A DNA stretch of 42,428 bases, from NCBI GenBank assembly GCA_036478295.1, contig JAZGDW010000017.1:1-42428 (forward strand), written 5' to 3'. Made by a program: the position numbers and the translations under genes. Origin of the DNA: Candidatus Krumholzibacteriia bacterium (GTDB lineage: Bacteria > Krumholzibacteriota > Krumholzibacteriia > WVZY01). Numbering within the stretch: the first letter of the stretch is position 1; each line of letters opens with the position of its first letter. The notes under the pieces were generated by a model. It worked only from the letters and a program-made list of their open reading frames with translations. It ran no database searches and was not told where the DNA came from. Positions 11,603 to 34,380 of this stretch are shown here, in pieces.

Positions 11603-12154
11603 ATGAAAAGATTGCTATTCGCCGCGTGCATAGTTGTGGCACTTCCGGTCGTGGCGCTTGCCCAGACAGGGCAAATCGGTCTGTTCGCCGATCCCGGCGG
11701 CAACGGCTGCACAGTGACGGACAACTCGCCCGGGCCCATTACTGTCTACGTGGTCCTCACCGACCACGGGGGCGCCGGCGCCTGCGATTTCATGGTTCAG
11801 CCGGGTCCCGGGTTCTTGGGGTCGTGGGTCTCCGATACGTGGATCTTCGCGACTACACAGGGCACCTCGGACAAGGGCATTTCAATTATTTTTGGAAGTT
11901 GCGAGCCGACGCCCACCCACGTCCTGACCATCAATTACGTGGGCGCCGGCACGTCATCGCCGTGCAGTTCGATCGACGTCGTGGGCAACACCAACGTGAC
12001 CCCGCCGTCTCCCTCGATTACCTCCTGCGTCGGCTCGAAGAACCCGGTACCGGTAAGGTCCGTCGTCGTCAATCCCGACGTTACGTGCAACTGCATCGTG
12101 CCCGTGGAAGAAACCACCTGGGGCCGGATCAAAGCGCTCTACCACGGGGACTAG
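11603..12154 (+). CDS. Secreted Cys-rich hypothetical protein with C-terminal VPVEETTWGRIKALY tail
   Basis: ATG 11603 after GAGG; signal peptide MKRLLFAACIVVALPVVALA-Q; beta-rich body with several Cys. Confidence 0.85.
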   Translation: MKRLLFAACIVVALPVVALAQTGQIGLFADPGGNGCTVTDNSPGPITVYVVLTDHGGAGACDFMVQPGPGFLGSWVSDTWIFATTQGTSDKGISIIFGSCEPTPTHVLTINYVGAGTSSPCSSIDVVGNTNVTPPSPSITSCVGSKNPVPVRSVVVNPDVTCNCIVPVEETTWGRIKALYHGD

Positions 12155-12185
12155 CCTCAATGCGTCAAAAAGAATCGCTGTGTGT

Positions 12186-12269
12186 GGCTACGCCGGGCGC
12201 TATCGGATTGTTGACGGACCCGTCGCGGGACCAAGTGGTGGTGCGCCGATCGCGCCGCGGCGGGTAGCC
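12186..12269 (+). repeat. Intergenic repeat, copy B, folding into a long imperfect hairpin
   Basis: GGCTAC/GTAGCC, GCCG/CGGC, GGCGC/GCGCC and ATCGG/CCGAT pair in a nested fashion; homologous to 10689-10745. Confidence 0.8.
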
Positions 12270-12337
12270 GAGCGAAGTGGAGCACGGCGACGGAGGCAAT
12301 CCAACACCGCCCCGCCGCGCACCGTGACCGCAACGCT

Positions 12338-13162
12338 TCAATGCTCCCGCGACTGGAGCCATTCCACATAGGCCCACATCGCATCCAGGTCGCCGGGCTG
12401 CAGGTGTCGCTCGAACGCGGGCATGTGGATGGTGGCGCGGTCGAGGTACACGCGCGCAAACGGGCTCTTGTCGAAACGGTCGCTGATTCCCTTCAACACC
12501 CACTGGTCGAACTCTTCACGGTCCCGCACCAGCTCCGGAAAATCTTCCCCGTCCCAGGAAGGAATGTAACCCTTGAGCGAGCCCGGATTGGGTGGCGAAA
12601 AGCGGCCGCCCGGACCGTGGCAGCCGAAACACCCCAACTCGCGAGCGCGGTCGTAGCCCTTCTCTTGCAGAGGCGTGGCAAGTGATCTTGCACCGCCCGC
12701 AGCCTTGACGAAGGCGACGAGGTCATCGATTTCGAGGTCGGTCAGTTTGTCGCCGAAGGCCGGCATCGAGATAGCGCCGGCGTCGCGCTCCGCCTGCCAT
12801 TGCTTGCTGTTCGCCCTGTCCTCCGGCACGCCATCGCGGATCCACTGGCGGACCTCCGTATCCTCGTGCGAGGCGTGGTCGTGGTCCGCATCCTCGACAT
12901 GACCGCCGTCTTGTGTTTCGTCGGGATCTTCGTCTTGCCCGGCAAAGCCCGGGACGTTGCCCTCACGACGCCCGGCATTCGGCACGCCGCCGAGGCCGCC
13001 CGGACCGTGGCAGGCGAAGCACCCTTCACGTTCGGCGATGCGACGCCCACGCTCGACCGGCGGCAGGTGGGTATGAAACAGAGTCGCACGCAGGACTACC
13101 GCGGCGGCAATCCCCAGGACGATGACGATCGAACTCGAGGTAATGAGAAGGCGGCGGTTCAT
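12338..13162 (-). CDS. Membrane-anchored or exported diheme c-type cytochrome
   Basis: N-terminal hydrophobic helix; CFACH and CFGCH, each followed by a distal MPAF; two homologous halves. Confidence 0.9.
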   Translation of the reverse strand: MNRRLLITSSSIVIVLGIAAAVVLRATLFHTHLPPVERGRRIAEREGCFACHGPGGLGGVPNAGRREGNVPGFAGQDEDPDETQDGGHVEDADHDHASHEDTEVRQWIRDGVPEDRANSKQWQAERDAGAISMPAFGDKLTDLEIDDLVAFVKAAGGARSLATPLQEKGYDRARELGCFGCHGPGGRFSPPNPGSLKGYIPSWDGEDFPELVRDREEFDQWVLKGISDRFDKSPFARVYLDRATIHMPAFERHLQPGDLDAMWAYVEWLQSREH

Positions 13163-13213
13163 CGCGTTCCTTTCAGCGGCAAATCGCGTGTATGTTACCG
13201 CATTCCCTATTCC

Positions 13214-13242
13214 TTGACAGTTTTTTTTGATTGCCTCATTCT
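13214..13242 (+). promoter_or_regulatory. Sigma-70-type promoter for the DUF4153-MFS pair, with a T8 run in the spacer
   Basis: TTGACA-17 nt (GTTTTTTTTGATTGCCT)-CATTCT. Confidence 0.5.
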
Positions 13243-13291
13243 CCTCCAGTAAACCGCGATCGCGGGTGTCGGCCGAACGGGCAGGAGTCGT

Positions 13292-15103
13292 TTGAAGCGA
13301 TTCACCTCATTGAGATTGCTGGTATCGGGGGCGTCTGCCACCTTTCTGCGCTTTCCGCTGGTGCTGACGACCGCCGCAGTGGCGGCCGCGAGCGCGCTCG
13401 CCCTCGTGGAGGACAGCGATAACGCGCTCCCCTTGCGCATCCTTCTCACCTCACAGCTCGGGATTCCGCTGTTCTTTGCGCTCAGTATTTTCACGGAAAG
13501 CCACCGGTGGAGCCGGCCGAAGCATGTCCTGCTTCTCCTCGGTGGGCTGGGCGCGCTGGCCACCTACTTCGTCTTGCTGCCCGACTGGGTGACGCCCGCC
13601 GCCGGCATACGTTACGCGCAGTTCAACGCCGGCCTGCACCTCCTCGTCGCGTTTCTGCCCTTTGCCCGCACGAACCAGATCAACGGATTCTGGCAATACA
13701 ACAAGAGCCTGTTCTTGAGATTCCTCATCGCCGTGTTCTATTCGGGAGTGCTCTACGTGGGGCTGGCCGTCGCCCTGGCCGCGATCGACAAGCTGCTCGG
13801 CGTCGACGTGGAAGGCGAGAGCTACCTGCGGCTGTGGATCGTCATCGCGGCGGTTTTCAATACCTGGTTCTTTCTCGGCGGCGTGCCAGAGGACCTGCCC
13901 GCACTCGAAGACGTGAAGGATTATCCCAAAGGACTGAAAGTCTTCACCCAGTACATTCTGATCCCGCTGATCGTCGTGTATCTCGCCATACTGACCCTGC
14001 ACCTGGGCAAGATCGTCGTGACCCGCGAGTGGCCGAGCGGATGGCTTGGATATCTTGTTTCCAGCGTCGCCACCGCGGGCATTCTGGCCATGCTACTGGT
14101 TCATCCGGTCAAAGGTGAAACGGGGAACAAATGGGTAGGGTCGTTCTCGCGCTGGTTCTATATTTTGCTGAGCCCGTCCATCATCATGCTGCTCCTGGCC
14201 ATCTGGAAACGCATCGACCAGTACGGGTTCACGGAAAAGCGCTATTTTCTGCTGCTGCTCGCCGTGTGGCTCGCCGCGATTTCCATTTACTTCGTGTTCA
14301 GCCGCAGCAGGAACATCAAGGTGATACCGGCGAGCCTGTGCATCATCGCCTTCGCTACCGCCTACGGGCCGTGGGGAGCCTCATCGGTGTCCCGGCGAAG
14401 CCAGACGGGCCGTCTGGAAAATGTTCTGGTCGAAGCCGGTCTGCTCGCCGGCGGCCGCATCGGCAGAGCCACGGAAGAAGTGCCCTTCGACGACCGCAAG
14501 GAAATCACCGCCATACTCACGTTCCTTATCGAAAACCAGGGTACACGGGGCATCGAACCGTGGTTCGGCGAGGCCTTCGCCGAACTCGATACCCTGCAGC
14601 AATCCACGGCGCCCTGGGGACGCTCGACGGCACCCCGGGTGCGTGCGCTCATGACCCACATGGGTCTCGAGTACGTCCCTAAATGGCAGAGTATCGAGCG
14701 CGGGAATTTTTATTTCAACATCGACCACGGTGACCGGACCTATGCGATCGATGCCGCCGACTACTACGTCAAGCTCACTCGTCCCGCCGAGTCGCACTAC
14801 ATCATTCCCGCGCCGGGCGACACCCTTTCCCTCGTTTTCGACACGGACCGTTCCAGCTTCGAGATCCGCCGCGACGGCGAGACCGTGATCGCACTGGCGC
14901 TGGCGCTGTTGTTCGAGCAGGTGGCAGGCCACAAACAGGCGTCTCCCAACACCACCCGCTTTCCACCCGAGGTCATGCGTATCGAGGGCGAGAACGATCG
15001 AGCGAGGATGATCATTTACTTCAATTCCATTTCGGGCGACATCGAGGGCGAACGCCGGAGTGCGCGGCACTTCGACGCCGATTGTTTCATCAAATTGAAA
15101 TGA
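13292..15103 (+). CDS. DUF4153-type polytopic membrane protein
   Basis: RFPL start motif, GFWQYNKSLFLRF, YILIPL, RIDQYGFTEKRY, GPWGASSVSRRSQ; about 11 TM helices plus a soluble C-terminal domain. Confidence 0.8.
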   Translation: MKRFTSLRLLVSGASATFLRFPLVLTTAAVAAASALALVEDSDNALPLRILLTSQLGIPLFFALSIFTESHRWSRPKHVLLLLGGLGALATYFVLLPDWVTPAAGIRYAQFNAGLHLLVAFLPFARTNQINGFWQYNKSLFLRFLIAVFYSGVLYVGLAVALAAIDKLLGVDVEGESYLRLWIVIAAVFNTWFFLGGVPEDLPALEDVKDYPKGLKVFTQYILIPLIVVYLAILTLHLGKIVVTREWPSGWLGYLVSSVATAGILAMLLVHPVKGETGNKWVGSFSRWFYILLSPSIIMLLLAIWKRIDQYGFTEKRYFLLLLAVWLAAISIYFVFSRSRNIKVIPASLCIIAFATAYGPWGASSVSRRSQTGRLENVLVEAGLLAGGRIGRATEEVPFDDRKEITAILTFLIENQGTRGIEPWFGEAFAELDTLQQSTAPWGRSTAPRVRALMTHMGLEYVPKWQSIERGNFYFNIDHGDRTYAIDAADYYVKLTRPAESHYIIPAPGDTLSLVFDTDRSSFEIRRDGETVIALALALLFEQVAGHKQASPNTTRFPPEVMRIEGENDRARMIIYFNSISGDIEGERRSARHFDADCFIKLK

Positions 15104-16386
15104 CCCCGATGCCTCAATTAGCAAACCGAAAAAGTGTCTACGCCTGGGCATTTTACGATTGGGCCAACTCCGCCTTCGCCACCACCGTTATCGCCGGATT
15201 CTTCCCCATTTTCTTCAAACAATTCTGGAGCACGGGAGCCGACGTGACGGTGAGCACCCTGCGCCTGGGCACGGCCAATTCCGTGGCCAGCATCGTGGTC
15301 GCGTTTCTGGCGCCTTTCCTGGGCGCGATCGCGGACAAGGGCAGCGCCAAGAAACGCTTTCTCTTTTTCTTCGCCCTCATGGGCATCATCATGACAGCCG
15401 GTCTGTGCCTTGTCTCTCGCGGCGACTGGCAACTGGCGATCGCGGTCTTTGTCGCCGCCAGCATCGGGTTTTCCGCGAGTATTATATTTTATGACTCGCT
15501 GCTGGTAAGCGTCGCGGGCCGGCGCATGGACTACGTGTCGGCCCTGGGCTACTCGCTCGGCTATCTCGGCGGCGGTTTGCTCTTCGGCCTCAACGTAACC
15601 ATGACGCGGAACCCGCACTGGTTCGGGCTGAGCGACGCCTCACAAGCGGTGCGCCTTTCTTTCGTTCTTGTTGCCTTGTGGTGGGCGGTGTTCTCCATTC
15701 CCATAATGCTTTTCGTCAAGGAACCGCAGACCCCGACCCTCCGGGCATGGGATACGATAAGGGCGGGATTGAGCCAACTGCGCCGCACGTTCGACGACCT
15801 CCGGCAGCTTCGCGTGGTGTTTCTTTTTCTTATCGCGTATTTCCTTTATATCGACGGCGTACAGACCATCGCGCGCATGGGCGTGGACTACGGTCTTTCC
15901 CTCGGCTTCGAGGCCAACAGTCTCATTGTCGCGCTTCTCATCACCCAGTTCGTCGGGTTTCCGGCGGCGCTCGTCTTCGGCAAACTCGGCGAGAAGATCG
16001 GAGCGAAGACCGGCATATACATCGGCATCGCCGTCTACATCGGAGCGTGTGTCTTCGGATTCTTCATGAAGACTGTGAGCGACTTCTACATTCTGGCCAT
16101 CACCATCGGTCTGGTGCAGGGCGGCGTGCAGGCGCTCAGCCGTTCGCTTTACTCGACCCTGATCCCCCGCAACAAGGCCGCCGAGTTCTTCGGCTTCTAT
16201 AACATGCTGGGCAAGTTCTCCACCATGGTAGGTCCACTGCTGATGGGATGGGTGGGCGTGCTCACCGGCAACCCGCGATTCTCGGTGCTCTCCGTGGCCA
16301 TCCTCCTGATCGCCGGCTGGCTGCTGCTCGTACCGGTTAATGTAGCGGGGGGCCGCCGGGCCGCCGCGGAGATGGAAGCGCGTTGA
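15100..16386 (+). CDS. MFS transporter, UMF1/Atg22-like family
   Basis: WAFYDWANSAF, LGAIADKG, SALGYSLGYLGG, ALSRSLYS, EFFGFY; ATGA overlap with the upstream gene. Confidence 0.9.
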   Translation: MTPMPQLANRKSVYAWAFYDWANSAFATTVIAGFFPIFFKQFWSTGADVTVSTLRLGTANSVASIVVAFLAPFLGAIADKGSAKKRFLFFFALMGIIMTAGLCLVSRGDWQLAIAVFVAASIGFSASIIFYDSLLVSVAGRRMDYVSALGYSLGYLGGGLLFGLNVTMTRNPHWFGLSDASQAVRLSFVLVALWWAVFSIPIMLFVKEPQTPTLRAWDTIRAGLSQLRRTFDDLRQLRVVFLFLIAYFLYIDGVQTIARMGVDYGLSLGFEANSLIVALLITQFVGFPAALVFGKLGEKIGAKTGIYIGIAVYIGACVFGFFMKTVSDFYILAITIGLVQGGVQALSRSLYSTLIPRNKAAEFFGFYNMLGKFSTMVGPLLMGWVGVLTGNPRFSVLSVAILLIAGWLLLVPVNVAGGRRAAAEMEAR

Positions 16387-16534
16387 GCAAGGGTTGACGG
16401 CCGCGCGTGTTGGGACTATCGTCTAGTCCGTTCCCCACTTGTTTGACCTCGCGCAAACCGGCAAGACAACGGAGAAACGATGCGGTTTCGAATCACGCGG
16501 TTCACGACCAAGGAAATGTCAAAGGAATGATATC

Positions 16535-17443
16535 GTGACGCCGCATGGAACGCCCATCGAGCGATCCCGCAGACTGTGGATGATGGTGCGTAACGCGTTC
16601 AACGGTCTGGCACGGGCCGTACAGCGCGCCTGGGACGGTTTCTTCGACCGCCGCGTGCCGATGATGGCGGCGGGACTGGCTTTTTATTTTCTGCTGGGCC
16701 TCATTCCGTTTCTTTTTATTATCGCCGCCACCACTGGTTATTTCCTGAAAAACAACCCGGGCATCTATCAGCAGGTCAGTGTCACGGTACTCGAGCTGCT
16801 GCCGCCGGGCATCGGGGAAAAAATTCTCTCACAGATACAGGGTGCGGCGACGAACTGGCAAGGTTTCGGGGCGCTGGGCCTGGTCACGATGGTTCTCGTG
16901 GCGATGGGGTTGTTCGACGCACTCGATGAAGGGATCAACGCGGTTATGGGAACCAAGAAGAAAGTCGGTTTTCTCACCGGCCGCGTCATCTCGTTCGCGT
17001 ATGTCGTGGGGGCGATCACGTTTTTTTCGGTCGCTGCGGCGGCCGGTTACACTCTGGACCTGTTCGGCGAGCTGCCCTTCTTTCAGGAGCACCCCGCGCT
17101 CGTGTCGTTTTTTGGCCGGTACTTCTCAGAGTGGGTGTTCGCCGTGTTCCTCCTGGTGCTCTACCTGACCCTGCCGGTGAAGACGCCACGGTTTTTTCAT
17201 GCGGTGGTCATCGCGCTCGCGGTAACCGGCGCGTGGGCGGGCCTGCAGAAGCTCGGCACCTTCATCACCGCCGGCATCGTCAGGCGTCAGGCAATCTACG
17301 GCGCGCTGGCCGGTGCGGCGGTCTTTCTGACCTGGATGTACGTGCTCGCGCTCCTCATCCTGCTCGGCGCCAGGATCCTCGACTTCTGGCACCGGACGGC
17401 CGAGGTGGCACAGCCTGAAGCTGGCAAGAAACAACACATCTAA
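16535..17443 (+). CDS. YihY/virulence factor BrkB family membrane protein
   Basis: MAAGLAFYFLLGLIPFL and IYGALAG...WMY...LLGA. Start uncertain: GTG 16535 with AAGGA, or ATG 16580. Confidence 0.88.
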   Translation: MTPHGTPIERSRRLWMMVRNAFNGLARAVQRAWDGFFDRRVPMMAAGLAFYFLLGLIPFLFIIAATTGYFLKNNPGIYQQVSVTVLELLPPGIGEKILSQIQGAATNWQGFGALGLVTMVLVAMGLFDALDEGINAVMGTKKKVGFLTGRVISFAYVVGAITFFSVAAAAGYTLDLFGELPFFQEHPALVSFFGRYFSEWVFAVFLLVLYLTLPVKTPRFFHAVVIALAVTGAWAGLQKLGTFITAGIVRRQAIYGALAGAAVFLTWMYVLALLILLGARILDFWHRTAEVAQPEAGKKQHI

Positions 17444-17494
17444 TTATCGTACTGACAATGAATTACACTATCATACCAGGGTGCGAGCAGAACG

Positions 17495-17544
17495 TGACCT
17501 ATATCAGTTTTCCCTTACCAGGCTGGCGGTCGATGCGGTATAAT
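17495..17544 (+). promoter_or_regulatory. Crp/Fnr-like box (TGA-N6-TCA) and TATAAT -10 element upstream of the Crp/Fnr gene
   Basis: aacgTGAcctataTCAgttt at 17491-17510; TATAAT at 17539-17544. Confidence 0.45.
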
Positions 17545-17566
17545 GAGAGGGAAAGTGGGTATTGCC

Positions 17567-18280
17567 ATGACAGAATCATCTGAACGGCTCTATTGTAACG
17601 CCTGCGAGATGCGGCTGAATTCGGCGCTGAAAGACGTCGATACGGCGAGTCTCGAGGCGATCGACACCACCAAGGCCTGTAACGCTTTCAAGAAGGGCCA
17701 CGTTATTTTCGAGGAGGGTTCCGCGCCCAAGGGAATCTTCTGTATCCACGACGGCAAGGTCAAGGTCTACAAGACCGGAGACGAAGGGCGTGACCAGATC
17801 GTGCGATTCGCCAAGGCCGGCGACATCCTGGGCTACCGGTCGCTGGTCAGCGGCGAGCCGTATTCGGTGTCTGCGGCCGCGCTCGAGGACTGCGTCGTCT
17901 GTTTCATTCCCCAGGCTACTTTCTTTGAGGTGCTCAAATCGGACGAGCATTTTCCGATGACGGTCATCCGCCTGTTGTCCGGAGAACTGCAGCGGGCACA
18001 GAAGCAGATCGTCAATCTCGCACAAAAGCCGGTTCGCGAACGTCTGGCCGAGACCCTTCTGATTCTCCGGGAGGTCTACGGCACGGATGACGGCGACTCC
18101 GCCGCTCTGGCCGTCAAGTTGTCCCGCGACGAGCTTGCGAGCGTCGTCGGCACCGCGACCGAGACCCTGGTGCGCACCATCGCCGATCTCAAACGTGAGA
18201 ACCTTATCGCGACCGACAAGAAGAAGATCCGCATTCTGGACCTCGAGGGGCTGATTCACGCCGGAAACCTCCAGGACTGA
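17567..18280 (+). CDS. Crp/Fnr family transcriptional regulator with N-terminal CxxC
   Basis: cNMP-type domain (FKKGHVIFEEG...GKVKVYK...GDILG) and HTH LSRDELASVVGTATETLVR; CNAC near the N-terminus. Confidence 0.93.
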   Translation: MTESSERLYCNACEMRLNSALKDVDTASLEAIDTTKACNAFKKGHVIFEEGSAPKGIFCIHDGKVKVYKTGDEGRDQIVRFAKAGDILGYRSLVSGEPYSVSAAALEDCVVCFIPQATFFEVLKSDEHFPMTVIRLLSGELQRAQKQIVNLAQKPVRERLAETLLILREVYGTDDGDSAALAVKLSRDELASVVGTATETLVRTIADLKRENLIATDKKKIRILDLEGLIHAGNLQD

Positions 18281-18338
18281 TACTGCTCTCACCGCCAACC
18301 CCGTAGAGGCTGAGAAACTGCGCTGAGAAACCAGTTCC

Positions 18339-19118
18339 ATGCAAACGAAACCTTTTGACAACGTAAAAGGGATCCTTTTCGACATGGACGGCGTGGTCCA
18401 CGTGGGCAATTCCCCGGTGCCCGGCGCGGCGGACACGCTGAAGTACCTGGACTCAAAGGGTATCCCGTACCGATTACTGACCAACACCACGACCCTCCCG
18501 CCTGAGAAGCTGTGGCGCAAGATGGTCAATATGGGTCTTCCCGTCACATCGGACGTTATCGTCACTGTCCACCAGGCCGCTGTCGCCTATCTTCGCCGGA
18601 ATCCCAATGGTAAATGCTATTTGCTAGTGGACGACGACGTCCTGCCGGTGTATAAAGGGCTGCCCCAGTCGGAATCGCACCCCGATTACATCGTGATTGG
18701 AGATATCGGCAATCGCTGGAGTTACACACTGCTGAACGAAATTTTCAACCTGGTCATGGATGGCGCAGAGATGGTAGCGCTTCACAAAGGCCGCTTCTGG
18801 CAGACCGAACGGGGCCTGCGGATGGATATCGGCGCGTTCGTCTCCGGACTCGAATACACTACCGGCAAGCAGGCTACGGTCATCGGCAAGCCGTCACCGA
18901 CTTTTTTTGAGACCGCCCTGAAAGATCTTGGACTCGACAAGAAAGAGGTCATCATGGTCGGTGATGATATCGAGACTGACATCGGCGGCGCGCAGCGCGT
19001 GGGTATCGCCGGGGTGCTGGTAAAGACAGGCAAGTACCGGCAGGAAGACGTGGAGCGTTCCTCCGTGGTGCCCGACGCGGTGCTTTCTTCCGTCGCGGAA
19101 CTCAAAGACCTTCTATGA
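18339..19118 (+). CDS. HAD subfamily IIA hydrolase (LHPP/HDHD2-like)
   Basis: FDMDGV, LTNTT, IGKPSPTFF, MVGDDIETDIGGAQ, LVKTGKYR. Confidence 0.92.
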   Translation: MQTKPFDNVKGILFDMDGVVHVGNSPVPGAADTLKYLDSKGIPYRLLTNTTTLPPEKLWRKMVNMGLPVTSDVIVTVHQAAVAYLRRNPNGKCYLLVDDDVLPVYKGLPQSESHPDYIVIGDIGNRWSYTLLNEIFNLVMDGAEMVALHKGRFWQTERGLRMDIGAFVSGLEYTTGKQATVIGKPSPTFFETALKDLGLDKKEVIMVGDDIETDIGGAQRVGIAGVLVKTGKYRQEDVERSSVVPDAVLSSVAELKDLL

Positions 19119-19139
19119 CAGCAAGGGGATAAGCGGAGC

Positions 19140-21578: not shown

Positions 21579-21647
21579 CCGGGATTTTCACCGAAGACGT
21601 TTAGAACGGCCACAAGCGCCGGTGGCCTGCAGCGCGGTCCATCCTCC

Positions 21648-21676
21648 TTGACCTGCAACGGGCATTCCAGTATTTT
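21648..21676 (+). promoter_or_regulatory. Possible sigma-70 promoter of the flippase-sulfotransferase-DCC1 unit
   Basis: TTGACC-17 nt-TATTTT. Confidence 0.4.
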
Positions 21677-21727
21677 CTCCGTTGAATTGTAGAGACTTAC
21701 CCGTTCTCCAACTGCCCTGATCCGATC

Positions 21728-23281: not shown

Positions 23282-23282
23282 C

Positions 23283-24543: not shown

Positions 24544-25904
24544 CGTTGCAGCCGTATGTGAAATGACATGGTGCCCGTCGCGGTTCTTCGCGCCATGTCC
24601 GTTGCGCTGTAACTGTTGATCAGGTTGTCTTGCCCGAGAAACGTCACGAACTGTTCGAAGTTCTCCAGCGCGGGCAGGTCGCGACCCGTTATATTATAGA
24701 GGTGGGTTCGATCGTTCCACGGGGGCGGGTTATCAATAAAAATAGAATCTCCCTGCACGTCCGCAAGCGGGTAAACGGCTTCGTAGGTAAATGTGTCGCA
24801 CAAGGTCGAGATGGACACCCCGCCGACCCACGTGCCTGCCCTGCCGAACGGCTCCAGAAACCCCGGATCACTCTGCCTCGGAAAGGTATAGAACCAGCCG
24901 GCGACACCTGAGCCGTCCTCTTTGGGGTGGTCGTGTCCGGTCGCCTTTATCAGGAACCGAAATGTCTTCCTCCTGAAGAGTTCGGCGCCGATGACAACAA
25001 AATCGCTGTCGACCGGTGACCACCAGTCCCACACGATGGTTTCCGTGTCGTTGATCCGGGTACCGTCGTGGTTCTCCAGCCAGTAACTATCCAGGGTGGG
25101 ATCGAAGTTGCCGACGATCGCAAAGGAGGGCGGCGACGGGTCGGGCCCGCTGATGTTGGTCGTCCGTACGTGGACGACGTACTCGACCGAGCCGATGTTC
25201 ATCGACGTCGAATTAACCGTGCTGAACGGGTTGTCGTCTGCGGGATCGAAGGGCAGCCATGGGGACGCAAAGAACTTCGCACCCGGCGGAAAAAAACGAG
25301 AATCCCGCTCGTAGCGCAGCTGGTAGTCGAAACACCAGTTCACGGGGTCCGGACAAAGCAGCGGACTGTAGCCGCTGCCCTCATAAGTCACGGTAATCCA
25401 GCTACCGTAGGGGACGGTGTCGGGGATGCCGTCTGTGAAATCAATCGCCTCCTGCTGCGGCTGGCCGCCGATCATGTAGGTGTTCATGATAGTGGTGATC
25501 TGCGTACCCGCGATAAGACCCAGGGCGACCCTGAGCGCCGGTGACCACTGGGACTGGACCTGGGGGTGTATTTTGCAGCGCGCCTGGGCGGCAACGTCGC
25601 GCAGTCCGACGCCGATCCAGACCACGGTTACCGTGTCCGCGTCGCCCCACGGTGTGAGACTCCCCAACCCGGCCTGGTCGAGATCGAAGCGGTACTCGAT
25701 GGGATGGGCGAGGTTACTGGCCGCGCCCCCACTCGCATAGGTGACCGTATCCCCGTCGAGCACGGCACTCGTTCCCTGGGGTATCACCGGGACGCTGACG
25801 ATCTCGTTCGATGGTGGCGGGGGAGGCGGCAGCACGACGTTGTCCTCGCCACATGCGCCGATCAATACGGCCACGAGTACCGCTGCGAGAAACAATCGTC
25901 TCAT
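24540..25904 (-). CDS. Hypothetical lipoprotein with beta-rich domains
   Basis: MRRLFLAAVLVAVLIGA-C lipobox, poly-Pro linker, GGGGAG RBS; no recognised catalytic motif. Confidence 0.8.
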   Translation of the reverse strand: MRRLFLAAVLVAVLIGACGEDNVVLPPPPPPSNEIVSVPVIPQGTSAVLDGDTVTYASGGAASNLAHPIEYRFDLDQAGLGSLTPWGDADTVTVVWIGVGLRDVAAQARCKIHPQVQSQWSPALRVALGLIAGTQITTIMNTYMIGGQPQQEAIDFTDGIPDTVPYGSWITVTYEGSGYSPLLCPDPVNWCFDYQLRYERDSRFFPPGAKFFASPWLPFDPADDNPFSTVNSTSMNIGSVEYVVHVRTTNISGPDPSPPSFAIVGNFDPTLDSYWLENHDGTRINDTETIVWDWWSPVDSDFVVIGAELFRRKTFRFLIKATGHDHPKEDGSGVAGWFYTFPRQSDPGFLEPFGRAGTWVGGVSISTLCDTFTYEAVYPLADVQGDSIFIDNPPPWNDRTHLYNITGRDLPALENFEQFVTFLGQDNLINSYSATDMARRTATGTMSFHIRLQR

Positions 25905-26149
25905 TCAACTCCCCCTTTTTTTTGCGCAACACCACCGGGCGCGGCACGATACCAGAAATCTTTCTTCGTGGGGACCAGCGTCGTGGGGACCGCGTGGCAA
26001 TTAGCGAAGATGGCGGAGAACGCCACCCGAGGGTTCGGGCACGCGGCAGGTCTCACCTGCAAAAAAGATGGCAGATCACGGGCAAAAGCGCAACCCAAAC
26101 CCGACGGGGATATGGAGTTGCGCCCGGTTCGCGTCGTTCGCAGCAAAGG

Positions 26150-26166
26150 TTGGCCGGGCGATTGCC
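26150..26166 (+). promoter_or_regulatory. Possible sigma-54 promoter upstream of the lon-like gene
   Basis: TTGGCCGGGCGATTGCC with GG-N10-GC spacing. Confidence 0.35.
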
Positions 26167-26282
26167 CGCGAGTACGCCGGCGTAAGGTTGTGCAATCCCG
26201 GCCTGACGAGCGCTGGTGGGGGTGAGCGGCCGAGATTGCATAATTCATTTAAAATAGGTATTTTAAAAGGCCTGGGAGTGAA

Positions 26283-28682
26283 ATGAGCGAAGTTTCGAAA
26301 TGGCTCGAATGCGACGTACCGGCGGTCCTTCCCGTGCTGCTCCTCAAAAGCACGGTGCTCTTTCCCCTGCAGGTTGTGTCGGTCCAGATAGCGAAAAAGC
26401 CGAACTTGAGATTGCTCGAAGCGCACACCGGCCCCGATGAAATCGTCGGCGCGGGCGTATTCGTCGACCCCGAAGGAACGTATGTCAAAACAAATCTTGG
26501 ACCGGCGGCGGTCGCCTGCCGGGTGCTGAGCCGGATGAAGATGGGTCGTGGCATCACCCAGGTCGTGTTGCAGGGGCTTCGCCGCGTGGCGCTCACCGAG
26601 ATCGTCGCGTCCCGTCCTTATTTTATCTCGCGCGTGACCTGTGTCGACGCACAGGAGCGTGATAGCAAGGCCACGCGTGATCTCATCGCGCAGGTCATCC
26701 AGCTGGTCGAGAATCTGGTCGCGGTCGACGAGCGTTACACTGAGGAAATAGTCAAGGTGGTCCGGCTCAATGTCGAGAGCGGCTCACGCTGCGCGGACCT
26801 CGTCGCCAATATGGTGCAGCTCAGTTATGGCGACAAGCGGCGAGTGCTCGAGACGGCGGACGTTCCCGCGCGGCTGGCCCTGCTCGCCGATTTGCTGCGA
26901 CGCGAGATCGCCCGTGCCCGGATCGCCGGCGAGGTGCAGACGAAGGCCGAAGCTTCCATCGATCGCACGCAGCGAGAGGCCCTGCTCCGCGAGCAGTTGG
27001 AAATCGTCCGCCGCGAGTTGGACGAACTGGACCCTGCGGAGGCCGAGATCGCCCGTCTGGCCGCGTGTGTGGACGCCGCTGCGCTTCCTCCCCTGGTGGC
27101 CGAAGAGGCACACCGTGAGGTGCAGCGCCTGCACAGCGGGGCCGTCCGCGCCAGCGAGGGTTCCTCGATCCGGGCCTACATCGACTGGGTGCTCTCGATG
27201 CCCTGGGAGGCGGTGGCGCGGGAGCGCATCGACCTCCGCCGCGCCCGGAACATACTGGATAACCGCTACTTCGGTCTCGGCGACGCCCGTGACCGGCTGC
27301 TCGAGTTCCTCGCGGTGCGTAAGCTGCGGGGGAGCAACCGCCTGCCCCTGCTCGGCATCATGGGACCACCGGGCACCGGCCGGACGAGTCTCGCCCGCAC
27401 CGTGGCCGAGATACTCGGGCGGCCCCTGGTGCGCATTCCCATGCGCGGCATCCATGACGAGCAGGAGATTCAGGGATATCCGCGTACCGATGCCACAGCG
27501 CGACCGGGCCACATTCTCGACGGCCTGCGCAAGGTGGGTGTACGCAACCCGGTGATCCTGATCGACGAGATCGAACGCCTCGAGCCCTGGGAGGGCGAGC
27601 CGATGCTGGCGTTGTTGGAAGCGCTCGATCCTGCACGCAACACCCACTTTCGCGACTACTACCTGGGGGTGCCGTTCGATCTCTCACCGGTCCTCTTCAT
27701 CATTACCGGAAATATTCCGGAGGAGATTCCCAATACGCTCCTGGAATTCGTCTATATCATCGAGTTGGCGGGCTACACCGAGCGCGTCAAGCTGGCCATC
27801 ACCAAGGAATACATCTGGCCGCAGGTCGTCGAGGACCACGGTCTTACCCGAGCGAAGGTGCGCATAACCAGCGCCGCACTCCGGCGGATCATCAGCAACT
27901 ACACGCGTGAGGCGGGAGTGCGCGAGCTGACGAAGAGGCTGCAGGCGGTCTGCCGGCGGGCCGCGGTGAAAGTGGCGACCAACAAACACCGCCGCCTCTC
28001 CATCGACGTGCGAAGCCTCGAAGGCTACCTCGGTAAACCCATCTACACGGACGACCAGCTGGGCCGTGGGCCGCAGGTCGGCACCGCGACCGGGCTGGCG
28101 TGGACCGAGTCGGGCGGCGTGCTACTGCCGGTCGAGGCGCTGCTCATGCCGGGCGCCGGCTACACCACGGTGACTGGGTTACTCGGAGAGGTGATGGAAG
28201 AATCCGTCGAGGCGGCCATTTCCTACGTGCGCTCGCGCGCCGAGGAACTCAAGATTCCGGCGGACGTCTTCAAGAAAATGGACCTGCACGTCCATTTCCC
28301 CGAGGGGGCCATCCCCAAGGACGGTCCCTCGGCGGGCATCGCCGCGGTGACCACCATTGCCTCGCTGGCCTCCGGCCGTCCGGTACGCGACGACGTCGCC
28401 ATGACCGGGGAGATTTCGCTGCAGGGCCGCGTGCTTCCCGTGGGCGGCATTCGTGAGAAAGTGCTCGCCGCCTACCGGGCCGGTCTCCGGCACGTCATCC
28501 TGCCCAGGGGCAATGAGAGCGACCTGGACGAGGTGCCCCGCGAGGTGCGCGCGAAGATGCGCTTTCACCTAGTGGACGAAGTGGCCGAAGTCCTGCGCAT
28601 TGCCCTGCTGAAGAAGAGCGCGACGGCCCGGTCCGGCGCAGCCGTCCGGGCCAGAACTGGCGCGAGGGCGAGGCGGCGTTGA
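26283..28682 (+). CDS. lon: Lon (endopeptidase La) homologue with degenerate AAA+ module and intact Ser-Lys dyad
   Basis: LON N-domain, [84 protein letters not shown]. Confidence 0.92.
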
Positions 28683-28724
28683 AGAAGATTCTTTGGACTA
28701 CCGACGCACAAGGAGCCATGACCC

Positions 28725-29645
28725 GTGCCCGTTGACAAGAGGGACATCTGCATCATCGGTGTGCCCATCGACCTCGGGGCCGGTCGTCGCGGCGTCGACA
28801 TGGGACCCTCGGCCATCCGCATCGCCGATATCGAACCGCGCCTCGAAGCACTCGGTTTCACGATCGAAGACTGCGGTGACCTGGACATCGCCATCCCTGA
28901 GCTTCAACGGGTGGGCCAGGGCAACTTGCGTTTCAAAGATTCGATTCTTGCCACGTGCCACCAGGTGATGGACGCCGTGCGCGGTGGCCTCGAGCAGGGC
29001 CGCTTTCCGCTGGTTCTCGGCGGTGATCACAGTCTCGCCATTGGCTCGATTGCGGGCTCGTCCGGTTATTTCGCGGAAAAGGACGAGGAGATCGGTGTCA
29101 TCTGGTTCGACGCCCACGGTGACTTCAACACCCCGCAGACCACCCCCTCGGGTAACATCCACGGTATGTCGCTGGCCGTCTCCGTAGGCCTGGGCGATGG
29201 CGATCTCGTTGGCCTCGGCGGCCGATCACCGAAGGTCAACCCGGAGAAGACGGTTATTATCGGCTTGCGTGACCTGGACGACCGGGAGAAGGAGAATATC
29301 CGGAGTGCCGGCGTCACCGTGTACACGATGAGGGATCTCGACGAGCGCGGCCTGCGGCGTGTGTTTGACGACGCCATCAAAACCGCCGGTGACGGCACTG
29401 CGGGGATTCACCTGTCGTTCGATCTCGACGTCATCGATCCCCAGGTGGCCCCGGGCACCGGAACGCCGGTTCGCGGCGGCGTATCCTACCGCGAAGCCCA
29501 CCTCGCCATGGAGATGCTCGGCGACCATGCGAACGTCGTTTCCATGGACATGGTCGAGGTCAACCCCGTCCTCGATATCCAGAATCAGACGGCGCTCCTC
29601 GGCGTCGAACTCGTACTGAGTTTGATGGGGAAACGGATCCTGTAA
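28725..29645 (+). CDS. rocF: Arginase
   Basis: GAGRRGVDMGPSAIR, GGDHS, WFDAHGDFNT, SGNIHGM, SFDLD, APGTGTPV, EVNP. Confidence 0.95.
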   Translation: MPVDKRDICIIGVPIDLGAGRRGVDMGPSAIRIADIEPRLEALGFTIEDCGDLDIAIPELQRVGQGNLRFKDSILATCHQVMDAVRGGLEQGRFPLVLGGDHSLAIGSIAGSSGYFAEKDEEIGVIWFDAHGDFNTPQTTPSGNIHGMSLAVSVGLGDGDLVGLGGRSPKVNPEKTVIIGLRDLDDREKENIRSAGVTVYTMRDLDERGLRRVFDDAIKTAGDGTAGIHLSFDLDVIDPQVAPGTGTPVRGGVSYREAHLAMEMLGDHANVVSMDMVEVNPVLDIQNQTALLGVELVLSLMGKRIL

Positions 29646-29671
29646 GCACGGTACCGCTCGGCACCAACGGT

Positions 29672-30133
29672 CTATCTGAAGAGCTCCTTGATGGCTCCCC
29701 AGGTCCCGTTCTCGACGGGTGTGGTCTCCTGCCTGGCGACGACCATCGTGACGATGTAGTCCTTCGGATCGATGATCACCGGGTCCTCCGGAAACGGCGA
29801 AACGTTCAGCAACCTCACGACAAGCCCACGGAATGGCACTTCGCTTCGAAAATCCGGATGGGTGTTTAGCTCGAAGAACGTCCTGTCTCGCGGAGACGTT
29901 TCAGCCCAGACGAGACCGGTCGCATTGCCTTCCCAGATGCAATCCACGTTGAGCGGGCAACGACTGTCGGACGTTATCCTGTCGAACCCGACACGAACCC
30001 CCGTGTCGGCGATGAGCACGGATTTGCCGACTCCGAGGTCGAAGGGTTCGCCGATTCGCACCTGTGCGTTTGCGGTTGGGACGAGAACAAAACCCAGAAC
30101 AAGGGCAATCCAGAAGGATTGTTTGGGGCGCAT
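29672..30133 (-). CDS. Small secreted protein (DSRCP..V.C.WEG domain) with C-terminal TPVENGTWGAIKELFR tail
   Basis: ATG 30133 with GGAGGT; signal peptide ending ANA-Q; SDSRCPLNVDCIWEG. Confidence 0.85.
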   Translation of the reverse strand: MRPKQSFWIALVLGFVLVPTANAQVRIGEPFDLGVGKSVLIADTGVRVGFDRITSDSRCPLNVDCIWEGNATGLVWAETSPRDRTFFELNTHPDFRSEVPFRGLVVRLLNVSPFPEDPVIIDPKDYIVTMVVARQETTPVENGTWGAIKELFR

Positions 30134-30292
30134 GAAATTCACCTCCGAGGGGACCGCGGCTTGCGATCCCTGTCCACTGGAAGTGGGGCAAGATAAGAAT
30201 ACGGCATCGAGTGCGCCGCGGGCAAGAGCTAAATGCGACCCGCTATGGCTCTCCCTGGCCGTGCGGACGGTGCACCCCGTAAATTCATGACA

Positions 30293-30308
30293 TTTGACAT
30301 AGGTCAAA
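30293..30308. promoter_or_regulatory. Palindromic TTTGAC-N4-GTCAAA operator (FNR-box-like)
   Basis: TTTGAC-ATAG-GTCAAA has perfect 6-bp arms and lies in the divergent intergenic region. Confidence 0.55.
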
Positions 30309-30421
30309 CATTTCTGGCAAAATCGGTCCGTTGACCTACAGGCGCCCGCTCGATCATCGGTGCGCGCCGGCACGAATCAAAAATTTTCGAACTGCGGTTG
30401 AACGCGAGGACTCCTGGCGGC

Positions 30422-33352
30422 ATGATCGGCAAGACGGTCTCCCACTACAAGATCATCGAGAGAATAGGTGCGGGCGGAATGGGTGAGGTGTATCTGGCCG
30501 AGGATACCGAGCTGCGGCGCAGGGTCGCGTTGAAGTTCCTGCCACCCGGCTACTCGACCGCACCCGATGTCCTCACTCGCTTCAAGCGCGAGGCACGCGC
30601 CGCCGCCGCCCTCAACCATCCCAACATCATCACCATTCACGAGGTAGCCATGCACGGGGACCGCCCCTATATCGTTATGGCCTACGTCGAGGGTGAGTCA
30701 CTGAGCGAGCAAATTCGTTCCAAATCCCTGTCACTGCCGACCGTTATCGATATTGCCATCCAGATCGGTGAAGGGCTGTCCAAGGCCCACCAGGCGGACG
30801 TCGTTCACCGCGATCTCAAACCGGACAATATCGTCATCGACGAAGACGGCCGGGCCAAGATACTGGATTTCGGTCTGGCGAAGCTAAGGGGCGCCACGAA
30901 GCTTACCGACGAGGCATCGACTCTTGGGACTGTCTTCTACATGTCACCCGAACAGACAAGAGGCGAAGATGTCGGTCCCCGCTCCGATCTTTTCTCGCTC
31001 GGCACGGTGCTCTACGAGATGATAACCGGCCAGCTGCCGTTCGGCGGCGAACACATGGCAGCTGTTATGTACGCGATCACGACGGAGGAACCGCAGCCGC
31101 TAAGGCGTTTCAACAACGATGTCACACCCGGCCTGGAACGAATTGTCTTCAAGATGCTGGCCAAGGATCCCGGGGAGCGTTACCAAACCGCCGCGGACCT
31201 GGTCGCGGATCTCAAACACGAACGGAAACTCTCGCAACTGAACGCGTCCACAGCGCGCCGCCGATCTGGCCCTCGTAAACGAGGACCACGCACTCTCAAG
31301 ATCGCTATCCCCTCATCGCTATTGTTCATCGCCATTCTACTCGTGTTGATACTCAAACCGTTTCGCGTTGAAATAGCGCCGGACCGGCAGGCGGAGGCTT
31401 CTGAAAACATGCTCGCTGTAATGTACTTCGAGAACCTCGCCGATCGCGGCGACGAAAAACGTCTGGGGGAGATCATCACCAGCTTGCTGATCACCGACCT
31501 CTCGGCCTCGGATGCTCTCCGCGTGGTCTCCAGCCAGCGCCTCTATGACATATTGAAGGGACTCGATAAGGAGGGCACCAGGAACATCGATCGCAACACG
31601 GCGACGCTCGTCGCGAACAGGGCGGGCGCACAGTGGATGCTCCTCGGCAACATTCTCCAGGCAGAACCTACCCTGGTTGTAACATACCAGCTCGTCGACG
31701 TGGCCAGCGGGGACGTGAAGGACTCCCAACGCGTCGACGGCGCGAGTGGGGAATCAATCTTCTCTCTCGTGGATCGGATGACCGTCGAGCTAAGGAACGA
31801 ACTCTCGCTCACGCTTGCCACGCGTGGTGATATCGACAGGCCGGTTGCGGAGATCACGACAAGCTCGCCCGATGCCTACCGTCATTATCTCGAGGGAATG
31901 GAGCACCTCAATAAGAACTACAAGGAGGAAGCGATCGAGAGCTTCAGGAAGGCCATCGAAATCGACAGCACACTCGCGATGGCACACCTGGAGTTGGCCG
32001 TTCCAAACCTGCCGCTTTCGTTCGCGGAGAAACAGCGACACGTCAAGTTGGCACGGCGCTACTCCACCAAGGTCAGCGAGCGTGACCGCCACTTCATAAA
32101 TTCACTTTACGCGATCTATTTTGGAAGAACTTCAGAGTCCATCAGGGAATTGCACGCTGTCATCGCGAAACATCCTGATGACAAGCGAGCGTACTACGGT
32201 TTATCGGTTATCCACTGGATTGTACTGTCAAAACGTGACCAGGCACTGACCTATGCCAGAAAAGCCATCGAATTAGACCCGCTCTACAAGCTTGCCTACA
32301 ACCGGCTCGCTTACATCTACATCGACCTCGGCGAATATGAAAAGGCTCTGGAGGCGGTCGACACGTACATCGCACTGGGTCCGGACGAGCCCAACCCGTA
32401 CGATACCCAGGCAGAGGTGTATGGGCTCCTTGGCAGGCTCGACGACGCGATAAACGGCTACAAGAAAGCCATCGAGATCAAGCCCGATTTCGGAATTGCC
32501 GCAGTTAGCCTGGGAAACATGTATCTTTTTCGACAGGACTATGCGACCGCGGAAGCGTACTACCGACAATATCTCAGCCACCAAACAGCCGACCTGCGGG
32601 CGGCAGCGCGGCATGCGCTGAGTCGTGTACCTTTGCATCAGGGAAAGTTCGAAAATACCCTGGCGATGCTGGATCGTTACATCGCCGCTGATGAAGCGGA
32701 CCCGTACGGAGGCGAGTACAGCGGCGAGTTCCGTGCGGACAAGTATTGGTCGAAGGCGCTCGTATACACGCAGTTGGGCGATTATCGAAAGGCAATCGCA
32801 GCAGGCCAAAAAGCGCTCGAGATAGAACGCACGAGTGGTCGGGGCGGATCGTGGCGTACCCTGGTGGAGTTGCACGCCCGCAGCAAGGATTTTGCGGCCG
32901 CTGAGACGCTCTTGAGCTCGACGACCCTCGACACCACCCGCTGGAGCGGAGAGGACAGGGCAGAATTCTATTACTCGCACGGAATTATCGAATTCGAAAA
33001 AGGCTCTTACGCCGCGGCGTGTGACCATTTTGAGCGGGCGGTGTTCGACGATCCTGAGTTCTACACGCAGTATGCCCTGGCGGTGGCATACTTGAAGGCC
33101 AACCGGCTGACAGAGGCCGTGCGGGCCTTCGAGAGAATCCTGAACGAGTACTCAAGGCAACGCGCCGATGACCCGATCAATTCCGTACTCGTCTACTACT
33201 ACGCCGGTTTGGCCTATCAAGACTCGGGAATGAACGTCAAGGCTGTCGCGCAGTTTGAGAGATTTCTCGATATCTGGAAAGACGCCGATCCGGGTATCGA
33301 GGAGATGGCAGATGCCCGTCGCCGCCTGGATTCTCTCAAGGGCGGGACCTAG
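30422..33352 (+). CDS. Hanks-type Ser/Thr protein kinase with TM helix, TolB-N-like domain and TPR repeats
   Basis: IGAGGMGEVY, VALK, HRDLKPDN, DFG, YMSPEQ, DLFSLG; TM IAIPSSLLFIAILLVLIL; LAVMYFEN; multiple TPRs. Confidence 0.95.
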   Translation: MIGKTVSHYKIIERIGAGGMGEVYLAEDTELRRRVALKFLPPGYSTAPDVLTRFKREARAAAALNHPNIITIHEVAMHGDRPYIVMAYVEGESLSEQIRSKSLSLPTVIDIAIQIGEGLSKAHQADVVHRDLKPDNIVIDEDGRAKILDFGLAKLRGATKLTDEASTLGTVFYMSPEQTRGEDVGPRSDLFSLGTVLYEMITGQLPFGGEHMAAVMYAITTEEPQPLRRFNNDVTPGLERIVFKMLAKDPGERYQTAADLVADLKHERKLSQLNASTARRRSGPRKRGPRTLKIAIPSSLLFIAILLVLILKPFRVEIAPDRQAEASENMLAVMYFENLADRGDEKRLGEIITSLLITDLSASDALRVVSSQRLYDILKGLDKEGTRNIDRNTATLVANRAGAQWMLLGNILQAEPTLVVTYQLVDVASGDVKDSQRVDGASGESIFSLVDRMTVELRNELSLTLATRGDIDRPVAEITTSSPDAYRHYLEGMEHLNKNYKEEAIESFRKAIEIDSTLAMAHLELAVPNLPLSFAEKQRHVKLARRYSTKVSERDRHFINSLYAIYFGRTSESIRELHAVIAKHPDDKRAYYGLSVIHWIVLSKRDQALTYARKAIELDPLYKLAYNRLAYIYIDLGEYEKALEAVDTYIALGPDEPNPYDTQAEVYGLLGRLDDAINGYKKAIEIKPDFGIAAVSLGNMYLFRQDYATAEAYYRQYLSHQTADLRAAARHALSRVPLHQGKFENTLAMLDRYIAADEADPYGGEYSGEFRADKYWSKALVYTQLGDYRKAIAAGQKALEIERTSGRGGSWRTLVELHARSKDFAAAETLLSSTTLDTTRWSGEDRAEFYYSHGIIEFEKGSYAAACDHFERAVFDDPEFYTQYALAVAYLKANRLTEAVRAFERILNEYSRQRADDPINSVLVYYYAGLAYQDSGMNVKAVAQFERFLDIWKDADPGIEEMADARRRLDSLKGGT

Positions 33353-33375
33353 ATCTCTTGGCCCAAGGGTCCAGC

Positions 33376-34380
33376 ATGCGAACTTGGAAATCTGCGGCGA
33401 CACTCGCTGTGTTGCTCGCTTCACCCGTGTGGGCGGGGACCGTCTTCAACGACGGCCTCATCCACAACATATCCGACGGGAGCCTTTCCGGGTGCTGGAT
33501 CGATGTTCACTCCGGTCCCCGCGGGACAGCAACGACGTTGAACGTTTTGCCGGGCGCCGTGCTCGATTCCGGCCTGGACGCATCGGCCATCAACTCGCCC
33601 CTCGGCGAGGAATCGATTATCAATATCTCCGGCGGCACTATTACCGGAAACTTCGTCGCCGTGGACTGTCAGACGGCTGGGCCTCATTCGATCTCCGGCG
33701 GCATGATCAGCGGTGGGACGTACGGCGTCATACTACGGGAAGGCGCGTACTCGATCTCCGGCGGCGTCATCTCGGGCCCGCTACCGGCGTGGTTCAGGAC
33801 GAACGCCGTCGTCGATTTCATCGGCGGCACCCTCGACGGCGACGGCGGCGCTATCGTGTCGGATAACGCGCAGTTGAATGTCCACTCGGGACTCATGCAA
33901 TCGGTCAACTTTCACGCGGTCACCGCATCCCACAATTCCACAACGCACATCTACGGTGGCACAATGACAGGGGTGGAAACGAGTGGCAACGCCACCCTCA
34001 CGATCCACGGTGGCACGATCACCGCTCCGGCGGGCAAACCCAACGCCATTGTGGTGCGGAACGGTATCGTGAACATCCGCGGGGGAGATATTCACGGCAA
34101 TACTACCTCAGGCGGTGTCGAGCTCATTACGTTTCAGGGGACGGTCAGCATCTACGGAACCAATTTCGACCACCCCGTGGGGCCTTTGCCGTTGGGCGAC
34201 GGCGCGATTGTGAGTGGAACGTTGGAGAGTGGTGTGGCGTTTTCGTGGCGATACTCCAACGTGAACGGCGGCATGATCCACTTGATTCGGTCGACGGTCG
34301 CGACGAAAGAGTTCACGCTGGGCGCAGTCAAGGCAATGTATTTGGGAACGGCTCCCCTGCCACCCGTCCCTCGGCCGTAA
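33376..34380 (+). CDS. Secreted Gly-rich repeat (xxISGG) protein with variant tail VATKEFTLGAVKAMY
   Basis: Signal peptide ending VWA-G; repeated I/V-x-G-G-x-I units; VSGTLESG near the end. Confidence 0.85.
   Translation: MRTWKSAATLAVLLASPVWAGTVFNDGLIHNISDGSLSGCWIDVHSGPRGTATTLNVLPGAVLDSGLDASAINSPLGEESIINISGGTITGNFVAVDCQTAGPHSISGGMISGGTYGVILREGAYSISGGVISGPLPAWFRTNAVVDFIGGTLDGDGGAIVSDNAQLNVHSGLMQSVNFHAVTASHNSTTHIYGGTMTGVETSGNATLTIHGGTITAPAGKPNAIVVRNGIVNIRGGDIHGNTTSGGVELITFQGTVSIYGTNFDHPVGPLPLGDGAIVSGTLESGVAFSWRYSNVNGGMIHLIRSTVATKEFTLGAVKAMYLGTAPLPPVPRP

Follow-up and report, generated by a model that had tools for sequence, protein, structure and literature searches.

Tail-bearing proteins in the window

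The window, i.e., the whole stretch of 42,428 nucleotides that was analysed, is one contig (working label C79) of the 3.5-Mb, 91% complete assembly of a Candidatus Krumholzibacteriia bacterium. The label of a homologue with 67% identity and the Atlas taxa likewise point to Krumholzibacteriota as the probable phylum. Scattered among unrelated genes, it holds three that encode proteins with a common sequence at or near the C-terminus (Table 1). The initial annotation had described these as three signal-peptide proteins with unrelated bodies and a shared tail, and this description was borne out, as all three have hydrophobic N-termini by a crude rule and the best pairwise BLAST alignment after removal of the tails covered 37 aa at an E-value of 0.003, which is no real similarity and rules out homology over the full length. 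Its positions for the first two tails were exact, and that of the third was one base off. None of the three proteins matched a Pfam or NCBIfam family, and no T9SS component was found among the 30 window proteins scanned. Four other long frames of the window are also without a Pfam or NCBIfam match.

The tail of the third protein is degenerate, with L in place of W in the translation and a distance of 12 residues to the protein end, and it was absent from the top 90 matches of the HMM described below. It can be regarded as a real family member because P0180, a homologue of this protein, has the canonical form S-T-W-G-x-I-K at the same place; P0179 ends right after the motif. The nearest Atlas models of protein 3 belong to a Planctomycetota cluster (48% with PEP-CTERM) and to a cluster with 56% Dockerin_1, and in structural comparison it resembles folds other than cohesin.

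Table 1 Features of the window and of other contigs of the genome, with related proteins and loci
Feature	Contig	Position	Strand	Description
Protein 1, 183 aa	C79 (window)	11603-12154	+	Predicted signal peptide, predicted cohesin-fold domain and canonical TWG tail
Predicted Sec signal peptide of protein 1, 20 aa	C79	11603-11662	+	Called by eye and by the crude rule
Nine-stranded beta-sandwich of protein 1	C79	11663-12085	+	Predicted cohesin fold; pLDDT >90; VIA Z 12.8 to 2vo8
TWG tail 1, VPVEETTWGRIKALY	C79	12098-12142	+	Junction V-P-V-E and core T-W-G-R-I-K-A-L-Y; stop three residues later
Protein 2, 153 aa	C79	29672-30133	-	Predicted signal peptide, body without known family, canonical TWG tail
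TWG tail 2, TPVENGTWGAIKELF	C79	29678-29722	-	Stop one residue later
Protein 3, 334 aa	C79	33376-34380	+	Predicted signal peptide
Tail 3, VATKEFTLGAVKAMY	C79	34297-34341	+	Degenerate (T-L-G-A-V-K), followed by a 12-residue extension
Long frame	C79	1581-3020	+	No Pfam or NCBIfam match
Long frame	C79	24540-25904	-	No Pfam or NCBIfam match
Long frame	C79	7-768	+	No Pfam or NCBIfam match
Long frame	C79	5891-6658	+	No Pfam or NCBIfam match
NHL protein	C25	4283		Tail-less paralogue, 56% identical
Lipoprotein-like protein	C45	28609-30159		Internal or tandem tails; also P0043, P0070, P0100, P0102, P0165
Lipoprotein-like protein	C54	11059-12393		Internal or tandem tails
Lipoprotein-like protein	C198	372-1103		Internal or tandem tails
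Scaffoldin-like protein	C69	11805-16667		Also L191-L195
Cohesin-family gene with in-frame TGA	C182	24697-25296		L016
Dockerin-like gene	C48	8612-9448		L199
Gene downstream of porV, 1145 aa	C288	4546-7983		L022

A portable C-terminal peptide

The pattern [ST]WGx[IVLMT]Kxx[YF] had 38 matches in the 49,853 stop-to-stop frames of the genome, 37 of them at most 12 aa from the stop, compared to a single match in the reversed frames and 0-2 in each of ten shuffles, none of the latter terminal; these counts exclude a chance origin. The score of an HMM built from 34 seeds falls from 14.7 to 7.7 bits after 37 matches, and two carriers were added by hand (one at 6.6 bits and window protein 3, which the HMM left unranked) to give 39. 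A scan of this kind had been proposed with the initial annotation, and its outcome was as foreseen there, with many matches that are nearly all C-terminal and mostly on signal-peptide-like proteins with unrelated bodies. The tail can be described as a portable peptide of 15 residues at the C-terminus of small proteins for which export is predicted. Third codon positions vary synonymously among the tail genes, so conservation acts on the protein, and a DNA repeat or mobile cassette is ruled out.

In the tail, the junction [PA]-[VTS]-[PAS]-[VT]-E is followed by the core T-W-G-x-[IV]-K-x-L-[YF] and in most cases by an Arg at the end, which is present in 95 of the 121 tails from outside this genome. 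Among 83 tails from several phyla, 54 of which came from a pattern that itself fixes G, K, T, and W, the G and K are invariant and the T and W nearly so. The tail had been thought to form a short amphipathic helix, and this view is not confirmed: in the AlphaFold model of protein 1 it has a pLDDT of 53-59 and three helical residues, and the hydrophobic moment computed for a helix (0.36) is below that for a strand (0.46), at a net charge of about +1.8. It lies unpacked against its own domain in the same model, where it is not seen as part of the carrier's fold. That it lacks a transmembrane helix or basic cluster was correct, since there is no hydrophobic stretch and the proteins stop 1-12 residues past the motif. 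Searches of the tail against Pfam, NCBIfam, and PDB sequences gave no match.

Proteins that carry the tail

By BLAST, the 39 carriers fall into 21 unrelated body groups, the largest of which accounts for 16 carriers and includes window protein 1. They are small, with a median of 211 aa versus 710 aa for the proteins with a T9SS CTD. Signal-peptide-like starts, called by a crude rule rather than by SignalP, were present in 30 of the 38 complete carriers (two of the eight without one are fragments), in 54 of 66 CTD proteins, and in 675 of 2260 background frames (30%). Named domains on the carriers include NHL and other propellers, CHRD, LTD, beta-helix, BACON, and cytochrome c, and tail-less paralogues exist, such as an NHL protein (Table 1).

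The largest tail-bearing family is predicted to have a cohesin fold. All top 19 VIA rows for the model of protein 1 are cohesins, with the best at an rmsd of 2.5 over 119 residues (2vo8), and Foldseek gave an E-value of 6.5e-7 to 5nrm; neither PF00963 nor any other Pfam model matched the family by sequence. This genome's cohesin family was detected in 20 of 80 genomes, none of them from Eisenbacteria or the phylum of genome G063, and it is accordingly not supported as a universal tail receptor. Cluster proteins from other lineages are related to it by profile (92.5%); the main Eisenbacteria cluster family has no such relation to it.

Some proteins combine these elements in other ways. The scaffoldin-like proteins have two cohesin-fold domains split by BACON repeats and a tail at the end, and large relatives with one or two cohesin-fold domains end in a T9SS CTD. 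In a lipoprotein-like family without a Pfam assignment, tails are found within a loop, behind every repeated domain, or as two to four copies in tandem, with four in P0070. One cohesin-family gene (on C182) has an in-frame TGA where its paralogues have Cys, with a P-T-G-I junction and then an intact tail close behind; a nonsense change or an assembly error is likelier than selenocysteine, which was rejected because no convincing hairpin was found downstream (z 0.74).

Relation to the type IX secretion system

The genome encodes SprA, PorV, and PorU-type C25 proteases and has 82-85 CTD matches, and both SprA and C25 proteases were present in all of the 80 genomes tested. The T9SS alone is not sufficient for tails to occur, as it is also present in Zixibacteria. 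For five body families, this genome encodes paralogues of both kinds, tailed and with a CTD, and the CTD forms are longer and have extra domains. Among 38 complete cohesin-like proteins at the retrieved loci, a set that excludes six frames truncated at the edges of the loci, 20 have a tail, 8 a degenerate tail (judged by eye), 9 a CTD, and one neither, and no protein has both. The segment before the CTD resembles the tail junction: [PVTA][TV][GA][IVF] was found there in 31 of 73 CTD proteins versus 3 of 73 at a control position, the 121 outside tails show [PA][VTS][PAS][VT] at positions unspecified by the search pattern, and one gene carries a CTD-type P-T-G-I directly before its tail.

The likeness of the tail start to the linkers that precede T9SS CTDs, remarked on in the initial annotation, is supported, and a tie to the T9SS is supported by the either/or occurrence of tail and CTD on paralogues and by the similar junction. 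The further suggestion of a minimal alternative CTD does not hold, because CTD models matched neither the 34 tails nor the three window proteins, and the core motif was found in none of the 87 CTD-set proteins of this genome; for the latter reason it cannot be what is left of the CTD linkers present here. A tail immediately ahead of a CTD was seen in 0 of the 87; a search of proteins above 476 aa with four tandem tails likewise gave no match, as weak evidence. At the tail position in register with the PorU P1' residue, Pro stands in 33 of the 39 tails of this genome and in 66 of 121 outside. In PMC10202324 the PorU cut site is given as lying between T/E/D/N and G/A/S, and in PMC4804311 PorU cleavage is called sequence-independent, which softens the objection that Pro at P1' raises.

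Distribution across phyla

A DNA pattern scan gave at least 129 stretches; among the matches listed, most are from Eisenbacteria, Krumholzibacteriota, Latescibacterota, and unnamed bacteria, and the five from other groups are chance matches in frames of 26 aa or less. Profile searches detected tails in all 61 genomes of the bacterium's own phylum (1-49 each) and in 50 of 51 from the Eisenbacteria phylum, where the 51st (G096) has at least two real tails and is no longer taken as a genome devoid of both tail and PorU2. A small phylum, for which the label Gemmatimonadota comes from the seed record, has tails in 9 of 9 genomes (18-83 each). Only 6 of 51 Zixibacteria genomes had a tail by profile search, one each, and the rest had none. 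The five of these six tail proteins that were retrieved represent a single small protein, conserved and nearly identical in its tail, and no clear orthologue was found in this genome. This protein (L166-L170, L202-L206) is about 130 aa long, has a signal peptide, and is encoded directly upstream of anti-sigma/phosphatase genes, which also precede the tail cluster in other phyla.

At 50% identity, the tail profile matches at least 999 clusters. In the best 150 of these, the pattern was found in 149, at 9 aa or less from the end in 148 and 58 residues in for the remaining one. Dockerin_1 counts are reciprocal to tail counts, with 4-69 matches per genome in 19 of 19 Zixibacteria versus 0-2 in each of 61 from tail-rich phyla, which amounts to one phylum-level contrast.

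A second PorU-type protease encoded beside tail genes

On contig C48, the genes are ordered lspA, rluD, anti-sigma kinase, SpoIIE phosphatase, ruvX, mltG, NAD-synthase-like, tRNA-Val, dockerin-like, four cohesin-tail genes, and a C25 protease, which runs off the contig and likely has its second half on C292. The arrangement is shared by loci of Krumholzibacteriota, Eisenbacteria, and the third phylum. The dockerin-like gene (by eye; no Pfam match) and its homologues encode secreted proteins with a dockerin-like end, and in many Krumholzibacteriota and the third phylum it stands directly before the cohesin-tail genes; judged from the gene order, its product and the cohesin-tail proteins may form a minimal cohesin-dockerin pair. 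The labels rex, rsbV/W/U, larE, murQ, anmK, spoIID, nagZ, SurA-like, ExbB/D, NTF2-like, and dockerin-like were given by eye and are our assumptions.

The protease, here called PorU2, has a Peptidase_C25 domain, a His/Cys dyad, homology to PorU, and a CTD-like C-terminal domain, as in PorU-type C25 sortases, and its only PDB relative is the PorU of P. gingivalis. Without exception, the 24 sequences compared have the His and the Cys, followed by an extra His (Cys-His signature) absent from three canonical rows; a tree separates PorU2 from canonical PorU at 100/100, with only these three canonical rows. At 27 porU2 loci from three phyla, co-oriented tail genes lie upstream in 24 and downstream in none, and the three canonical porU loci had no tail genes. 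The choice of loci bears on this count, as 13 of the 27 were picked via the neighbouring dockerin-like gene and 14 via protease matches; of the latter, 11 had a tail gene, and in one of these 11 cases a tail nearby had already been noticed when the locus was selected. The majority of the tail genes are far from porU2, and this applies to all three of the window.

A co-occurring protease, for which the initial annotation had recommended phylogenetic profiling, was found in PorU2. With a score gap that was read off once the results were in, it was whole in 33 (at least 477 bits) of 40 held-out genomes from the tail-rich phyla and in pieces in 5, and it was not found in 2 fragmented assemblies, compared to 0 of 40 Zixibacteria, which had a single match each of at most 267 bits, in two cases confirmed as the canonical PorU beside porV. 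No PorU2 match was obtained in the fragmented assemblies G065 (39 tails) and G096, nor in the six tail-bearing Zixibacteria, and the latter imply that a tail can persist without it. Since the joint profile of PorU2 and tail amounts to about one phylum-level contrast, kinship alone could produce the pattern.

Comparison with known sorting systems

Judged on sequence features, the tail behaves like a sorting signal, but it is outside the CTD, tripartite-signal, and dockerin families. To our knowledge, the T9SS signals described so far all fold into domains of at least about 75 residues, and the known short sorting tags come with a transmembrane helix. Like the type A CTD (TIGR04183/PF18962), which is processed by the PorU of the PorQUVZ complex (PDB 6za2), the tail is a putative C-terminal signal on proteins with predicted Sec export (30 of 38 by the crude rule), in the same genomes, which encode SprA, PorV, and PorU, and on the same paralogue bodies, and the protease whose gene is linked to it is homologous to PorU, with the His/Cys pair and a CTD-like end. 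However, the type A CTD is a beta-sandwich of about 75 residues, whereas the tail has 15, is unstructured in the model, matches neither PF18962 nor TIGR04183, and is found on carriers a third the size, usually with Pro at P1', and PorU2 is a separate paralogue with a Cys-His signature. A precedent for alternative signals with dedicated partners is provided by the type B and C CTDs with their PorP/SprF shuttles, which according to PMC12618676 and PMC10202324 form domains whose length ranges from 100 to over 200 residues, the type B CTD probably not being cleaved. This genome has about ten PorV-family barrels, and a PorV paralogue beside tail genes was found in none of 11 cases checked.

Like the tags of LPXTG/sortase, PEP-CTERM/exosortase, GlyGly-CTERM, and MYXO-CTERM, the tail is short and portable, occurs on dozens of unrelated proteins with predicted export, and has a candidate protease whose gene is linked to those of tagged proteins; protein 3 resembles the cluster with PEP-CTERM mentioned above. 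In contrast to the motif, transmembrane helix, and basic residues of the tripartite signals, the tail has neither helix nor basic cluster and no NCBIfam or Pfam match, and the candidate enzyme is a soluble C25 protease rather than a membrane sortase. As in cohesin-dockerin systems, such as the clostridial anchoring cohesins and the dockerin tails of Zixibacteria, the commonest carrier has a predicted cohesin fold, with the nine-stranded beta-sandwich in the model of protein 1, and adjoins a dockerin-like gene. The tail differs from dockerin type I (PF00404) in that alignments and Pfam show no duplicated calcium-binding loop-helix and no Dockerin_1 match, and the cohesins here have no Pfam match and are themselves tailed.

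Proposed function and alternatives

The best explanation, to which we give about an even chance, is that the tail is the sorting signal of a CTD-less T9SS branch and is predicted to be read, cut, and attached to the envelope by PorU2. The tailed protein would be exported by Sec and fold in the periplasm, after which the core T-W-G-x-I-K-x-x-Y-R would be recognised by PorU2 or by one of the PorV-family barrels. A cut within or close to the [PA]-[VTS]-[PAS]-[VT] junction, or else ahead of the conserved Gly, would be followed by transfer to an envelope amine, as with PorU and A-LPS; outer-membrane passage of the CTD-less cargo would be the weakest step. Of the lineage-specific sorting tag put forward in the initial annotation, the portable, terminal, and protease-linked character is upheld, whereas sorting itself we infer, and the tandem and internal copies equally fit a docking peptide. 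These copies on lipoprotein-like proteins count against cut-and-attach, because such a signal does not need them.

A docking peptide of this kind would be dockerin-like and non-covalent and would be retained, plugging into an envelope protein socket for which the non-catalytic part of PorU2, a cohesin-fold domain, or a barrel are candidates, in the role that dockerin tails have in Zixibacteria. We consider this possible though doubtful. Tandem and internal copies suggest avidity, Pro stands at the expected PorU cut site, the commonest body has a predicted cohesin fold with T9SS-tailed proteins containing one or two such domains, and Dockerin_1 and tails are reciprocal between phyla, yet this last point is a single phylum-level contrast. 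Against the cohesin family as a socket, it was detected in only 20 of 80 genomes (none in Eisenbacteria or the G063 phylum), the main Eisenbacteria family is unrelated to it by profile, and the neighbouring dockerin-like gene offers the cohesins a partner that is easier to envisage; moreover, the model leaves the tail undocked on its own domain, and PorU2 keeps its catalytic pair.

That the tail acts with no T9SS step, either binding the envelope directly as a cationic amphipathic peptide on lipid or LPS or linking to peptidoglycan via the conserved Lys, is unlikely in our view. Its charge and hydrophobic moment would suit such a role, with a possible resemblance to the membrane helices of MinD and the Tyr-Arg-Lys end of Lpp, degenerate tails lose the W or G and keep the hydrophobic/basic pattern, and the conserved cluster is flanked by mltG (YceG) and peptidoglycan-recycling-like genes (labels by eye), but the near-complete conservation of four residues exceeds what generic lipid binding needs, and the CTD-like junction and the porU2 linkage would go unexplained. 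Still less probable is a periplasmic quality-control or release signal for a protease or chaperone, or a low-function junction left by CTD loss: a PPIase/SurA-like gene (by eye) lies between the tail genes and porU2 in Eisenbacteria, and tail-less paralogues exist, but conservation at the protein level is strong across phyla.

Returning to a sorting signal handled by PorU2, we tentatively extend it to a picture in which three uncultured phyla would have a CTD-less T9SS branch with its own sortase paralogue, in which the peptide would take the place of the folded CTD on small cargo, and tail-anchored cohesins would build a plug-and-socket scaffold, the founding substrates being the cohesins encoded between the dockerin-like gene and porU2. 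If this picture holds, the tail would be the shortest T9SS signal and PorU2 a PorU with its own peptide address, and a soluble 15-residue tag with dozens of copies per genome, three phyla, and a candidate enzyme would widen the classes of both T9SS signals and short tags. A full-text search that covered few subscription journals found no account of the tail or of a second PorU, and the accessible part of PMC11495043 mentions the phylum three times, none of them on sorting. The tail gives a means of annotating the unnamed protein clusters, of which there are at least 999, provides a tag that is both small and portable, and bears on the workings of the T9SS outside Bacteroidota.

Further observations on the T9SS of this genome

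A search for GldM found nothing in this genome, nor in any control. The PorV-family barrels (on C81, C97, C203, C190, C218, and C265) in several cases adjoin large proteins with an atypical CTD, and several lie near genes that we take by eye to be ExbB/ExbD/TonB-like; in this genome the T9SS may draw its energy in another way. Downstream of porV, a gene for a 1145-aa protein without a Pfam family (on C288) has a weak match to part of SprA and adjoins two unnamed genes and a POTRA/Omp85 gene.
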